IMG/VR virus record: IMGVR_UViG_3300011423_000025
Location: 1-27,225 of that record
DNA length: 27,225 nucleotides
Source: a virus
Taxonomy: Duplodnaviria; Caudoviricetes
Direction: 5' to 3' (one strand)
Positions 815-22,040 of the stretch are shown here, piece after piece. A program made the translations under genes and the position numbers. The notes below the pieces were generated by a model. The model searched no databases and had not been told where the DNA came from. It was given only the letters and a program-made list of their open reading frames with translations. Position 1 is the stretch's first letter. Each line of letters begins with the position of its first letter.

Positions 815-888
815 TGGTTGCGCGCCCGGGAATCGGACCCGGTTCTCGGCCTTATGAGGGCCGCGACTTGCCATTTGTCCTGCGCGCG
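815..888 (-). tRNA. tRNA-Met(CAU), initiator-like but atypical; encoded 3' CCA
   Basis: Cloverleaf: acceptor CGCGCGC/GCGCGCA (C1xA72), D arm GAC-AAATGGCAA-GTC, anticodon arm CGGCC-CTCATAA-GGCCG, T arm CCGGG-TCCGATT-CCCGG, then A73 and CCA. 74 nt, wholly intergenic. Confidence 0.85.
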
Positions 889-17035: not shown

Positions 17036-17731
17036 TCATGTCGCGCGGCCGACGCCGGCCGACGCTTCGAATTTCACATCACCCCATCCCGCCGTCACGC
17101 GCAGCAGTTCATGATCGCGCGCCGCGAAGAGGATCGCCGCGGCATCGAAGGCGTTGTCGCGCAGCTTCTCGATCGACTCGACCGGGATCATTGCGCCCGT
17201 CCGCTTGTGCTTCACGAGCTTCGTCTTCGGCAGCGCGCTTTGATCCACGATGAACGTCTTTGCGACCAGCGCGCGCGTTTGAAGTTTCGTCTCGTCGCTC
17301 ACGCGCTTCGTCCCGAGCGCGGCCGCGATCACGTCATTGCGGATGAAGTCGCAGCGATTCGCGCATGCGACGACGCACGCGGCGCGATAGGCCGCGAGTG
17401 CGATCGACATGGCACGCATCCCCGAAGCGTTCTGCGCGCCCATCGTCGGCAGCTCGGCGAACACAATCGCTCCAATCCCTGGACTGTCGAAGCCCCACGT
17501 CGGACCATTATTGGCGATGGTCTCTACGAGAGACGTGTAGAGATTCTCCGCGAGATCCCCGAAGTAGATGCATGATCGCTTCTCGTTCCGCGCGGCCGTC
17601 GAGAGGCCGGCGGCCGGCTCGATCACGGACAGCTTGACGTGCGGCCCGTCGTCACGCAGCGTCGCGATGGCGACGCCCGTCGCTTCGAGGCCCACGTCGA
17701 GCAGGAGCACGGCCCGCGGCGCGTTCGTCAC
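17036..17731 (-). CDS. RuvC-like Holliday junction resolvase
   Basis: Catalytic pattern LLLDVGLEATGVA (D), FAELP (E) and DNAFDAAAI (D,D). The GTG at 17731 has SD GAGGGG; the track extends the ORF to 17791. Confidence 0.8.
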   Translation of the reverse strand: MTNAPRAVLLLDVGLEATGVAIATLRDDGPHVKLSVIEPAAGLSTAARNEKRSCIYFGDLAENLYTSLVETIANNGPTWGFDSPGIGAIVFAELPTMGAQNASGMRAMSIALAAYRAACVVACANRCDFIRNDVIAAALGTKRVSDETKLQTRALVAKTFIVDQSALPKTKLVKHKRTGAMIPVESIEKLRDNAFDAAAILFAARDHELLRVTAGWGDVKFEASAGVGRAT

Positions 17732-17820
17732 GACCGGTCCCCTCGTCGTTTTCGTCGTCGTCACGCCGCGCACGATGGCGCATTTAGGCACGATCGCGCG
17801 ACAAGAAAAACGCTGACTGA

Positions 17821-17849
17821 CGTAAGTCGTTGCAGGTGCGCAGCTTACG
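17821..17849. promoter_or_regulatory. 29-bp imperfect palindrome CGTAAG-N17-CTTACG in the divergent control region
   Basis: cgtaagtcgttgcaggtgcgcagcttacg, followed immediately by a pyrimidine tract. Confidence 0.45.
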
Positions 17850-17850
17850 C

Positions 17851-17890
17851 TTTCTCTTTTTTTCTCTTTTTTTCTCGTCTTTTCTCTCCT
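17851..17890. repeat. Pyrimidine-rich, AT-rich tract with short direct repeats (TTTCTCTTTT)
   Basis: tttctctttttttctctttttttctcgtcttttctctcct, the most AT-rich stretch noticed in the window. Confidence 0.8.
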
Positions 17891-18132
17891 GAAAGACGAT
17901 CATCTCCGCCATCGACGTGGGCAGCCGAACAGGCACCGCGACGATGGCCCGACCCGGGCCGCGATGGATCCTTGAAAACTTGATGGCCCGTCACGGTGTT
18001 CAGGAGACGCGGCCCGCGGCGACAACGGAAGCCCGCGAAACGAAACCTTCCCGCGCCAGCGACACTCTCCGGGCAGTTGAAGCCGGGGCGAACCTGCTGG
18101 AAGCCGCTAACCCGCGTACGGGTTGAATGAAA

Positions 18133-18214
18133 GCCGAAAGGGGAGACGGGGTGGTGTACGCCTCGTCCCTCTCGCGCCGCGATCGATCCGTGCGGCGCCT
18201 GATGAGGCAGGATC
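18133..18214 (+). ncRNA. Hammerhead ribozyme, type II, with loop I-3' tail pseudoknot
   Basis: Order: GCC (stem II), GAAA 18136-39, stem III (AGGGG-A-GACGGGGTG/CGCCTCGTC-CCTCT), C17 at 18173, stem I GCGCCGC/GCGGCGC, CTGATGA 18199-205, GGC. Loop I GATCC 18185-89 pairs with GGATC 18210-14. Confidence 0.93.
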
Positions 18215-18265
18215 AAAACCGCGACACCGATCCGGTGCCGCTCGGCATACAAAGGAGTCCTGACC

Positions 18266-18487
18266 ATGAACACCAACAAGCACCCCGCCACCTTGCCCGA
18301 GGGGCGCGCGTGCGCGATCAGCGAGGGAGCCCATGCGGCCCTCGCGTCCGTGCAGACGGACCCGCTTCCGACGCGCCTTCGTGGCGGTGCTTACGTCGTC
18401 GGCAAGGCGTGGCTCGCCCACGAGATCGAACGCGCCTACCTCCAAGGCCGCGCGGACGAAGCGGCCACGCGGGAGGTGGCCAAGTGA
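18266..18487 (+). CDS. Hypothetical protein (first early gene)
   Basis: SD AAAGGAG, 73 aa. Confidence 0.75.
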   Translation: MNTNKHPATLPEGRACAISEGAHAALASVQTDPLPTRLRGGAYVVGKAWLAHEIERAYLQGRADEAATREVAK

Positions 18488-18771
18488 AGAAATCGAAGCT
18501 CACGCCTGCGCAAGAGATGGCGCGGATCGCTGTCTCGATCGGCCGTGCGCACCGCATCTTGGCGAAGGCACGCACGCGGACCGCTGCACTCTCGAATGGG
18601 CGTGGTGATAGCGAGTCGCGTCGTTTCTTCGGGCTCGCCGCTGGTGCCGCGGTCTTGGCGGGCGATGCCGCCTATCACGCGCTGTTGCTCGCGTCCAATT
18701 TCGGCGTGCTGCTGCGGCGGGACGACCCACTGCCCCACGTCGAGAAGCTCGGGTCGAACGAATCCGTCTGA
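18484..18771 (+). CDS. Hypothetical protein
   Basis: SD GGAGGT, GTGA-coupled, 95 aa (MKKSKLTPAQEMARI...). Confidence 0.65.
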   Translation: MKKSKLTPAQEMARIAVSIGRAHRILAKARTRTAALSNGRGDSESRRFFGLAAGAAVLAGDAAYHALLLASNFGVLLRRDDPLPHVEKLGSNESV

Positions 18772-18845
18772 TCGGATCCCACGAGACGCGGCATGCACCG
18801 CGTCTTTCATCGTTTCAAGGTTCAACGCAGGAGAGGAAGCAAGCC

Positions 18846-19000
18846 ATGGCACATGAAATCGAGTTCGACGCTACGTCGAGAGCGAGTCGCTCAAGCGCCG
18901 CGAGGCGCGCTTCGTGGACGCGACGTTCGGCGGCGGCGCGACGCTCAAGCGCGCGGCCTTGAAGTTCGCGCTCGATTACGCGGGCGCGTCGAACAACTGA
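18846..19000 (+). pseudogene. Internally deleted remnant of a DUF932/TIGR03299-like gene
   Basis: A strong SD and MAHEIEFD (family-like N-terminus) are joined out of frame to ...RFVDATFGGGATLKRAALKFAL... (family-like C-terminus), which ends at TGA 19000. Confidence 0.6.
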
Positions 19001-19069
19001 TCATGTCTTCGTCGTGCGCGGTGAGGCATACCCCGCCTCAACGCCATCCGCGTGCGACGGTCTTTCATG

Positions 19070-19120
19070 GGGGCGCCGAGTTGCTGCGCAAATATGCGCG
19101 CGGCTCGGCGCCCCGTTTTT
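19070..19120 (+). terminator. Rho-independent terminator
   Basis: GGGGCGCCGAGTTGC/GCGGCTCGGCGCCCC stem plus inner GCGCA/TGCGC, followed by GTTTTT. Confidence 0.75.
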
Positions 19121-20047: not shown

Positions 20048-21918
20048 GCATCCAACTCGAACGGTACGACTCGACGGGGGCGCGCTTGTGCGCGGCGCTC
20101 CCGTTCGACCGGAACTCCCCGGCCAAGGCCGTGCCGGGCTTCCGCTACGACGGCAACTGGCTGGGCGCGAACGGCGGGGCGCCCGCGCGCAAGGTCTGGC
20201 ACTGGCCCATCCAGTCGCTCCCCGTACTGCTGCGCGCGTTCCCCGACATCGTGACGATCGACGCGATGATCCTGTCGGCAATCGAGCGCGCCAATCAACT
20301 CAACGCGGCACGGGCGCTGACGATGGAGCGGGCGCGCGCGCTCGCGGCCGGCGCCACCCTGCGCGATGGGGTGCGCACGGCGACGGGCAAGACGCTGCGC
20401 GCGCATCAGATTGCCGCCTGTCAGGCCGCGCTCGCGGCCGGCGGATCGCGCGGGATCCTGCATCAGACGGGCACGGGCAAGACACCCACCGCCGCGACGC
20501 TGGTGTCGTTGCTCACGCAGCCGGAGAACGGACTGCGCAAAGCGGTCATCGTCTGCCCCGTCACGCTGATCGAGGCGGCCTGGATCCCTGATCTCAAGGA
20601 ATGGTTCCCCGAGTTGCCCGTGGTCAACTTGCGCGCATATCCCAAGGGCCAGAAACGCGAGTTGGCGGTCGCGGCGGCAATTCGAACGCACGGGCGCGTC
20701 GTCGCGCTCATCAATTACGAATCGATGCGCACGGATCCGAGCGTCCGCCGGATCATGGCGGGTGCATACGTCGTGTTCGACGAGGTGAGCAAGTGCAAGG
20801 GCGTGAAATCATCGATATCGATCGTGGCACGCGAGATCGCGGCGACGTTCCGCGGATGTGTGCTGCTGTCGGGCACGCCGGCACCGAACGGGAACCAGGA
20901 GTATTGGCCGCTCGCGAAGATCATCGCACCGGCCGCGGGCTACGACCCGTTCCCCGGCGGGCATTCCGCTTTCGTCAAGGAATTCTGTGACGTAAAGACG
21001 TTTCAGCGACGCGGGCAACCCGGCGTGAAGCACTTCGCGGGCTTCGAGTTCCGCGACGAGATGGCCGCGCGCATCCACGAACGCCTCTCGCCGATCTGTG
21101 AGTGGGTGAAGAAAGAGCAATGCCTCGATCTCCCGCCCAAGGTGTTCCAGCGCGTGCCGATCGAATTGAGCAAGGACACGGCGAGCGCGTACGAGGAGAT
21201 GCGCGACGCCATGATGGTGTCGATCGGAAAGAAGTACGACGATTCCGAGAAGCTGCGCGCGCATGCGAAGAACGCGCTGGCGCAGATGATGAAGCTGCGG
21301 CAGATTACCGCGGGCTACGTTCCGGCGCACAAAGAGGATTGGATTGCCGGATCTGACGCGGCATCGAGTCGCGTGCTCGTACCGATCGGTCGCGAAAAGA
21401 TCGATTGGCTGCTAGAGCACTGCGAGACGGACACCGAGCGGATCGTTATCTGGACGCAGTTCATCTTCGAGGCGAAACGCTACGTCGAGGCGTTGCGCGA
21501 GGCGAAGGTGCCGTGCGAATCGATCACGGGGGAGACGCCCGAATCGGATCGCGCGAACGTGTTCAAGGGGTTCGTCGCTGGACACTTCCAGGTGCTCGTC
21601 GCGCACCCGGGCGTCGCGCAGTGGGGCGTATCGTTCCCCGGCATCTCGCTCGCCGCATACGGATCGCTCTCCTACTCGCTCCAAGAGTACGCGCAGTCGC
21701 AGGATCGCATCCACGGCATCGGTCGCGGCGACGCGACCAAGCACTCGACGTACTACCTGCTGACGGCGCGCGTGCGCGGCGCCGAGACGATCGACGCGGA
21801 TTGCGTGGACGTACTGGAGGGCAAGCGCGACGCGCTCGACCTCGTCTTCGACATCGACCGGAAGCGTCGTGCGGCGGGATTCGTCGCGAGCGACACTGGA
21901 CAGACGATCGACGCATGA
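20044..21918 (+). CDS. SNF2-family (SF2) DNA helicase
   Basis: Motifs LRAHQ, HQTGTGKT, IVCPVTL, VFDEVSKCK, LSGTP, LDLPPK, MKLRQI and QSQDRIHGIG. GTGA-coupled start. Confidence 0.9.
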   Translation: MSIQLERYDSTGARLCAALPFDRNSPAKAVPGFRYDGNWLGANGGAPARKVWHWPIQSLPVLLRAFPDIVTIDAMILSAIERANQLNAARALTMERARALAAGATLRDGVRTATGKTLRAHQIAACQAALAAGGSRGILHQTGTGKTPTAATLVSLLTQPENGLRKAVIVCPVTLIEAAWIPDLKEWFPELPVVNLRAYPKGQKRELAVAAAIRTHGRVVALINYESMRTDPSVRRIMAGAYVVFDEVSKCKGVKSSISIVAREIAATFRGCVLLSGTPAPNGNQEYWPLAKIIAPAAGYDPFPGGHSAFVKEFCDVKTFQRRGQPGVKHFAGFEFRDEMAARIHERLSPICEWVKKEQCLDLPPKVFQRVPIELSKDTASAYEEMRDAMMVSIGKKYDDSEKLRAHAKNALAQMMKLRQITAGYVPAHKEDWIAGSDAASSRVLVPIGREKIDWLLEHCETDTERIVIWTQFIFEAKRYVEALREAKVPCESITGETPESDRANVFKGFVAGHFQVLVAHPGVAQWGVSFPGISLAAYGSLSYSLQEYAQSQDRIHGIGRGDATKHSTYYLLTARVRGAETIDADCVDVLEGKRDALDLVFDIDRKRRAAGFVASDTGQTIDA

Positions 21919-22040
21919 TCGATCCTGCTGCGCGCGTGTCGCGGCCTCAACGACTGCACCTTCCCGTGAGTCGTTTCATGGATTCGAGTAACCGCGACCG
22001 CGCGTGGCTGGATTTCTTAGGAGGATGCACCATCTCATGA
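21915..22040 (+). CDS. Small hypothetical protein (41 aa)
   Basis: ATGA overlaps at both ends, with the helicase stop and with the next start. Confidence 0.45.
   Translation: MIDPAARVSRPQRLHLPVSRFMDSSNRDRAWLDFLGGCTIS

Follow-up and report, generated by a model that had tools for sequence, protein, structure and literature searches.

A predicted type II hammerhead ribozyme with a pseudoknot in the early-operon leader of an uncultured tailed phage

Judged by its sequence, the element at the head of the early operon described here is a canonical type II hammerhead ribozyme, in agreement with every core and junction rule, and it probably cuts itself between positions 18173 and 18174 during transcription, so that the early mRNA would begin at a fixed site with a 5'-OH. 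The ribozyme class, its pseudoknot and an early-operon example have been known since 2011, and the present copy is a further member of the class. The features of the locus are collected in Table 1.

The window, i.e., the whole stretch of 27,225 nt that was analysed, is a 27-kb piece of a tailed, uncultured phage with a G+C content of 64%. Its leftward block comprises tail, head-tail adaptor, major head, protease, portal and terminase genes, and its rightward block contains genes for an SNF2-type helicase, Pam3 gp33/gp34-like genes and a primase gene. Between the divergent blocks lies a gap of 534 nt, flanked by gene starts at 17731 (-) and 18266 (+), and the AT skew switches sign at this gap. 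The first gene of the leftward block, leading to the terminase, portal and head genes, encodes the 231-aa protein; its RuvC-like call has a score of 0.94 and the protein clusters with RuvC on 20-34% of members, while no match was found in Pfam or PDB. On the other side of the gap, the 73-aa first gene is called as a gene in public sets and its codons are coding-like. The preliminary description had put the ribozyme in the leader of the early/replication operon, and sequence and comparison agree that it stands in a non-coding leader ahead of the gene that opens the rightward operon. It is also worth mentioning that a tRNA-like match (Rfam, 47 bits) lies between tail genes, directly after the minor tail gene, at 818-888 (-) of the window, and that long intergenic hairpins occur in the early/replication block at 19000-19075 (-34.7 kcal/mol) and 21915-22040 (about -57 kcal/mol), both of them possible processing or termination sites.

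Table 1. Features of the divergent gap and the predicted ribozyme (window coordinates)
Feature	Position	Strand	Basis or remark
231-aa protein, divergent neighbour	17036..17731	-	RuvC-like by language-model features only
Non-coding leader	17900..18132	+	Modest fold, non-coding codon use
Six-pair hairpin just before the boxA-like motif, in boxB-like position	17946..17960	+	C17955 is T in the relative
boxA-like motif	17967..17983	+	About 190-194 nt upstream of the predicted cut; putative function
Entire type II hammerhead ribozyme, pseudoknot included	18133..18214	+	Anatomy; Rfam RF02276, sub-threshold; 23-copy model
Stem II 5' strand GCC (18133-35) and G12-A15.1 GAAA (18136-39)	18133..18139	+	Sequence
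Stem III, 14 pairs, 18139-18153 with 18159-18172	18139..18172	+	Sequence, fold
NUH triplet CUC (18171-73) and predicted cut C18173/G18174	18171..18174	+	Sequence and hammerhead consensus (PMC3088659, available text)
Stem I, 7 Watson-Crick pairs, 18174-80 with 18192-98	18174..18198	+	11-nt loop with pseudoknot strand GAUCC (18185-89)
Core C3-A9 CUGAUGA (18199-205), stem II 3' strand GGC (18206-08), linker A, tail GGAUC (18210-14)	18199..18214	+	
Hairpin between ribozyme and ribosome-binding site	18221..18241	+	Terminator-like score on the - strand; identical in the relative
Shine-Dalgarno AAAGGAG (18251-57) and first gene, 73 aa, ATG 18266	18251..18487	+	Family match absent

The anatomy given in the preliminary description, with its core, stems I, II and III of 7, 3 and 14 pairs and CUC triplet, proved right base for base. 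So did the 5-bp pseudoknot between GAUCC of loop I and GGAUC of the tail, which consists of Watson-Crick pairs throughout and stands in the family register, and the distance of 92 nt from the predicted cut to the first early ATG at 18266. By the core and junction criteria in the available methods text of PMC3088659, C3 U4 G5 A6 N7 G8 A9, G12 A13 A14, A15.1, U16.1 and H17 are all unchanged, and the core-adjacent pairs 1.1-2.1, 10.1-11.1 and 15.1-16.1 are present as G18174-C18198, G18206-C18135 and A18139-U18172, respectively. Stem II is open and stems I and III are loop-closed, as in the type II permutation; neither a type I nor a type III hammerhead was matched in the window. Within stem III, A18144 is bulged, three of the pairs are G-U and the loop spans 18154-58. 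The combination of a short stem II with a loop I pseudoknot had been called typical of microbial type II hammerheads, and type II copies with a pseudoknot are indeed common in phages.

The type II descriptor gave one match on the + strand of the window and zero on the - strand. Among 300 order-2 Markov windows the loose match arose in 2, stems of this length in 1, and such stems together with a 5-pair pseudoknot in 0. The minimum-energy structure of the 82-nt stretch is the three-stem form, at -41.2 kcal/mol (z -2.1), which was equalled by 6 of 200 shuffles. With flanks included, the predicted pairing probability of stem II drops to 0 to 0.1 under a model that cannot score the pseudoknot, and for longer stretches another fold is predicted as the minimum, by 2.9 to 5.6 kcal/mol over the hammerhead form when the pseudoknot is given no energy; for the pseudoknot duplex by itself the estimate is -5 to -8 kcal/mol. 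The Infernal check against Rfam Hammerhead_II (RF02276) that had been proposed fell short of the gathering score: a 601-nt scan yielded 19.2 bits (E 0.29) against a gathering score of 37, which is a curator's threshold and not a structural rule, and the scan of the whole window did not match the ribozyme site. The Rfam alignment has 24 nt in stem III where the model has 9, and the low score is probably due to this long stem. When a model was built from 23 other phage copies, with the window excluded, the ribozyme site reached 22 bits with a rough E of 3e-5, and the next site 11 bits.

The family to which the copy was compared was retrieved with a pattern in which stem II, the core and the two letters after it are fixed; about 350 viral records were estimated to match and 130 loci were listed. 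Among these listed matches 109 of 130 loci have the type II topology, and at least 159 distinct ribozymes are obtained when flank neighbours are included. Since 9 of the 11 loci scanned pass the Hammerhead_II cut-off, with L293 and the relative L021 falling short, the retrieved set is RF02276, and by its structure the window copy belongs to a common phage subfamily of it. The descriptor required stems I-III and not the pseudoknot, so that only the latter is a fair test of the family. A pseudoknot of at least 5 Watson-Crick pairs is present in 92 of the 159 copies listed, against 6% on average and 14% at most when tails were swapped 300 times, and in 23 aligned copies, chosen for equal length, two-sided changes were seen in four of the five pseudoknot pairs, a covariation that belongs to the family level and not to the lineage of the window phage. 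The register of the window pseudoknot, 9 nt to C3, is that of 27 of the 106 listed copies with a pseudoknot of at least 4 pairs.

The setting of the family is also regular. In 126 of 155 usable listed copies the cut is followed, no more than 100 nt on, by a Shine-Dalgarno sequence and start codon; the opposite strand gave 4 of 154, and 1050 random points gave 19%. The median distance is 61 nt among the 136 listed copies for which both were found. A reading frame ends no more than 40 nt upstream in 140 of 154 listed copies, against 20% of random points, so that most family copies are intercistronic; about 14 of the 154 have no gene ending just upstream and are thus of the leader type. The window copy departs from the listed copies in its stem III segment (32 nt; family mode 13), in the G15.2:C16.2 pair combined with a CUC triplet (3 of 159), in the length of stem I plus loop (25 nt; family mode 22), and in its downstream hairpin at 18221-18241, which is stronger than in about 99% of them. 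Several phages carry more than one copy: on one 71-kb viral contig (L073-L076) at least nine type II pattern matches occur in about 7 kb, one before each small gene, and several are also present in L026, L043, L097 and L102. Twister-sister ribozymes share gene blocks with type II hammerheads in L049 (1002-1081 and 2971-3048) and L057 (2996-3073). In L035, L050, L077, L091, L112, L118, L126 and others the tail could re-pair with the 3' side of the core as a post-cleavage hairpin; the window copy has no tail able to do so. A separate search with the exact 16-nt core plus tail was set aside, as none of its 18 viral loci had the hammerhead topology.

A scan of metagenomes returned four loci, of which L019 is the window itself and L020 stops before the ribozyme, and both were excluded. 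The remaining two, L021 and L022, represent one strain type, referred to here as the relative. They match window positions 17791-18243 with two changes, G18149A and C17955T. The former keeps a pair of stem III, as the G-U with U18163 becomes A-U, and the latter turns a G-C pair of the upstream hairpin into G-U. Both changes were also found in runs X4, X5, X7 and X18, while a contig from run X3 is identical to the window over 17554-18730. In contigs from 8 of 23 runs, patchy cover in low-share runs being left out, G18149A is the sole variant of the ribozyme. No RNA data set is listed among the 23 runs, which has no bearing on expression. The shared leader ends at 18243; from 18244, 84 nt past the cut, the relative has another Shine-Dalgarno sequence and different first genes. 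These data show that the ribozyme and leader sequence is real and that the leader is a unit. Its near identity is no evidence of selection, because the replication genes of the relative and the window are likewise 99.5-99.7% identical.

Two further differences between these phages deserve a mention. The RuvC-like gene at 17036-17731 (-) has 86% DNA identity to that of the relative, with both flanks at about 99%, which suggests that the allele has been exchanged. At 18846-18998 of the window, most of a 330-aa TIGR03299 (phage/plasmid-like) gene present in the relative is deleted, leaving only its two ends; the junction at 18869/18870 is probably not an assembly error, since the same junction is found in run X3. 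Among viral contigs, no related phage was found by the helicase, the RuvC-like protein or an alignment of the latter, and the four loci obtained with the helicase alignment are very distant (21-24%) and lack a convincing hammerhead, the best candidate scoring 13.4 bits. The genome search revealed no related phage, and GenBank phages gave no match to the leader and helicase matches of only about 25%; in protein searches more distant relatives appeared at 46-68%.

Two open frames, one upstream of the ribozyme and one across it, had to be considered. The frame of 47-69 codons ending at 18126 is probably not a gene: none of its three versions is present in a collection of 15 billion proteins, in which two downstream genes are found, and it has neither a homologue nor a clear Shine-Dalgarno sequence. 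Its codon score is -0.11 per codon, where real genes lie at 0.21 +/- 0.08 and 0.2% of 473 real windows are as low, and its third-position G+C is 0.66, compared with 0.73-0.87 in other likely small genes. The region is taken as a leader because the frame is absent from the protein sets, has no homologue and shows non-coding codon use. The second frame, of 214 codons (18127-18771), runs through the ribozyme; it was rejected, as it stops after 50 codons in the relative, scores -0.30 per codon and is absent from the protein collection. The preliminary description also had the cut free an upstream structured RNA. That RNA upstream would be cut off stands, but a separate structured RNA hardly emerges from its fold (z -2.3 against shuffles for the 233 nt upstream of the ribozyme, and 0.1 for the central 150 nt), and no Rfam family or homologue was found for it among the loci compared. 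The appearance of the upstream region is rather that of a leader carrying a hairpin and a boxA-like motif. No sigma-70 promoter consensus was found in the leader. An inverted repeat in the divergent gap (17821-17880; CGTAAG...CTTACG with a 17-nt spacer, then a long T-rich run) is identical in the relative and may represent either a terminator-like + strand structure or a site of protein binding.

The boxA-like motif, chosen by eye, is preceded by the hairpin and lies 284 nt before the Shine-Dalgarno sequence. It shares 10 of 13 letters with the B. subtilis consensus in the available text of PMC13753749, and it does not match the gammaproteobacterial boxA consensus. In 60 of 120 genome loci with the exact pattern a 16S 3'-end motif lies upstream, which identifies them as 16S-23S spacers; Rfam placed the pattern between the SSU and LSU rRNAs in 12 of 12 Bacillales loci tested and in 0 of 8 others, and in Paenibacillus and kin it precedes the 23S rRNA. 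This rRNA-spacer match is to Bacillales, while the phage has 64% G+C. Two further copies of the strict motif are present in the window, both over coding DNA (8555 + and 19931 -), and as this exceeds the Markov estimate the chance rate is nearer 1-2% per leader. Before family hammerheads the strict motif was seen in 0 of 40 and 1 of 63 cases and the relaxed one in 3 of 14 leader-type versus 9 of 140 intercistronic copies (p 0.08), i.e., with no significant enrichment. In an unrelated phage, L293, a promoter-like site, a hairpin, a boxA-like motif, a type II hammerhead and a start codon follow in this order on the minus strand; its hammerhead has a 3-nt loop I, and a second hammerhead-like sequence lies after two small genes. 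L293 is the only one of 47 distinct matches to the joint boxA and hammerhead pattern that has a convincing leader, the spacing being set by the pattern itself. Locus L158 has a promoter-like site, a hairpin and the exact motif, and among seven viral loci with the exact pattern one stands in a promoter-hairpin setting and none has a convincing hammerhead. Downstream in L293, as in the relative of the window phage, there is a TIGR03299-like gene of 328 aa, recognised by eye. A direct repeat of 17 of 20 letters links the boxA-like region at 17955-17974 to stem I and loop I at 18173-18192; the window contains two other matches of this quality, and one arose in 14 of 1500 simulated leaders (about 1% per 400 nt). 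Whether the motif is functional is judged close to evenly balanced, and the chance that the ribozyme cut is tied to it is put near a quarter.

In the explanation favoured here, transcription would start from a promoter near 17850-17900 and the RNA would fold as it is made, with the pseudoknot docking stems I and II; it is through this docking that the weak 3-pair stem II would be workable. With cleavage after C18173, the leader would end in a 2',3'-cyclic phosphate and the mRNA would start with a 5'-OH; about 270 nt of leader, boxA-like motif included, would be removed. The downstream piece would then carry stem I, the second hairpin and the Shine-Dalgarno sequence in this order, its 5' end capped by stem I and the pseudoknot, in line with the hairpin-capped 5'-OH end that had been predicted and that sequence and comparison support. 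The early message would thereby be insulated, and probably stabilised, whichever small gene comes first, much as with the engineered RiboJ. A 5'-OH end is not protective in every host, and a host with RNase J could reverse the effect. Standing against this explanation are the sub-gathering Rfam score, the rare G15.2:C16.2 pair, the 25 nt of stem I plus loop, the competing longer folds and the missing promoter consensus.

Other readings concern the purpose of the cut. It might serve a Nus complex loaded at boxA, where NusB/S10 and other Nus factors would let the polymerase read through the early operon; ribosome loading would be blocked by the RNA loop that joins boxA to the polymerase, and the hammerhead would open this loop at the place that RNase III occupies in the lambda N leader. 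This proposal, which is compatible with the favoured explanation and adds to it, is possible though on the unlikely side. In the lambda N leader, cleavage by RNase III is reported to relieve N repression. The order of hairpin, motif and distant Shine-Dalgarno sequence, the occurrence of the exact pattern in rRNA spacers, the same order of elements in L293, the promoter-like site, hairpin and exact motif of L158, and terminator-like hairpins in the early block (18785-18804) all speak for it. Published work points the same way, as the B. subtilis boxA lies behind a small hairpin and binds NusB (PMC13753749, available text), and boxA, by way of the full Nus complex, represses translation at distances of up to 100 nt, and lambda nutL from about 200 nt (PMC5725501, available text). 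These points are offset by a motif picked by eye that recurs over coding DNA at the chance rate given above, by its lack of significant enrichment before family hammerheads, by the single convincing leader among the joint matches and by the confinement of the rRNA match to Bacillales. The wider claim, that phages use a leader of promoter, hairpin, boxA, hammerhead and ribosome site in which host Nus factors need no phage N protein to allow read-through of the early operon and the ribozyme takes the place of RNase III in opening the RNA loop, leaving the transcript translatable, is doubtful. The cut could also destabilise the early mRNA by exposing the 5'-OH product to a 5'-3' exonuclease, as with glmS in Bacillus, and so limit or time expression. 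The glmS product with its 5'-OH is degraded by RNase J1 (PMC11780869, available text); yet the product here begins directly with a G+C-rich stem of 7 pairs and no free 5' tail, and family copies stand before ribosome-binding sites, often several per operon, which fits processing better and makes destabilisation quite unlikely.

The remaining readings question the ribozyme's behaviour or its existence. It may be slow or switchable, the tail pairing either with loop I, in an active state with the ribosome site free, or with the spacer between the Shine-Dalgarno sequence and the start; in a variant, the upstream look-alike of stem I and loop I at 17955-74 would compete. A tail-spacer duplex of -11.8 kcal/mol in the window, the direct repeat overlapping the boxA-like motif and competing folds within a few kcal/mol lend this some colour, but the duplex is only -6.7 in the relative, repeats of this kind recur in the window and in simulated leaders, and stem I is local and should form first; taken together, the two versions are very unlikely. 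Higher still is the bar for reading the leader as a small gene (frame from 17917, 17944 or 17983 to 18126), with an intercistronic ribozyme and boxA-like letters that are codons. The majority of listed family copies do have a frame ending close upstream, and this frame stops 9 nt before GAAA and is left silent by C17955T; against this, the protein collection, the homologue search, the lack of a clear Shine-Dalgarno sequence, the codon score and the third-position G+C described above render it highly improbable. A last reading, in which the element is an inactive relic, a piece of the 214-codon frame or a fold that G+C-rich DNA forms by chance, draws on the ease with which G+C-rich sequence pairs, the low Rfam score, the long open frame across the ribozyme and the 4 of 18 consensus hammerheads that proved inactive (PMC3088659, available text). 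None of the 300 random windows matched, the long frame fails in the relative, in its codon score and in the protein collection, and the independent 23-copy model ranks the ribozyme site far above the rest of the window, so that this reading is highly improbable as well.

If the cut were tied to the loading of Nus factors, this would explain the presence of a hammerhead in some phage early leaders, provide the first concrete job for phage hammerheads and link self-cleavage to antitermination. As a copy missed by the Rfam threshold, the ribozyme is a useful addition to an ordinary class. The locus is a compact test of the role of phage hammerheads, with one ribozyme, a kept leader, exchanged first genes, a RiboJ-like layout and an upstream boxA-like motif. 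A natural leader combining boxA with a hammerhead was not found in the mostly open-access literature searched, and the supplementary alignments of PMC3088659 may hold cases; the available text of PMC10250234 concerns an engineered hammerhead in an rRNA trailer and not a natural pairing with boxA. Like the rrn boxB-boxA and lambda nutL-N leaders, the window has a hairpin and a boxA-like motif early in what would be a long transcript, separated from the first ribosome-binding site by roughly 200-300 nt of structured RNA in which, here by prediction, a cleavage site lies. It differs from the lambda nutL/N leader in that the cutter would be a ribozyme instead of RNase III, and no N-like protein or boxB was identified.

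With RiboJ, as described in the available text of PMC6206723, the window shares the succession of a self-cleaving ribozyme, in its case a predicted one, a hairpin and a ribosome-binding site; here too the leader would be removed and a hairpin left at the 5' end. In the reporter tests with RiboJ mRNA rose about twofold. RiboJ is synthetic and derived from the ribozyme of a plant satellite RNA, and the likeness is one of function and not of family. The type II hammerheads of RF02276, their pseudoknot and their clustering between prophage genes were described by Perreault et al. in 2011 (PMC3088659), in whose available text activity was seen for 14 of 18 consensus hammerheads assayed, fast cleavage depended on the pseudoknot, and an altered stem I length lowered the activity of one ribozyme. 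The window copy has in common with them an open and short stem II, closed stems I and III, a canonical core, a single A followed by the pseudoknot tail, a phage setting and a downstream ribosome-binding site. It differs from them in its long stem III, the rare G15.2:C16.2 with CUC, a 7-pair stem I with an 11-nt loop, its single copy, its position in a leader, the strong hairpin before the Shine-Dalgarno sequence and a score below the Rfam cut-off. The same text contains the closest parallel in position, a hammerhead variant at the head of one phage early operon, HHphage of the haloviruses HF1/HF2. HHphage has an insertion in the core, lies 13 nt from the start codon and belongs to archaeal hosts, whereas the window has a canonical core and small genes that precede the helicase. 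In both, a hammerhead heads an early polycistronic transcript with a helicase gene, a predicted one in the window, and in the haloviruses the 5' end of the early transcript was mapped near the cut site, within 3 nt of it.
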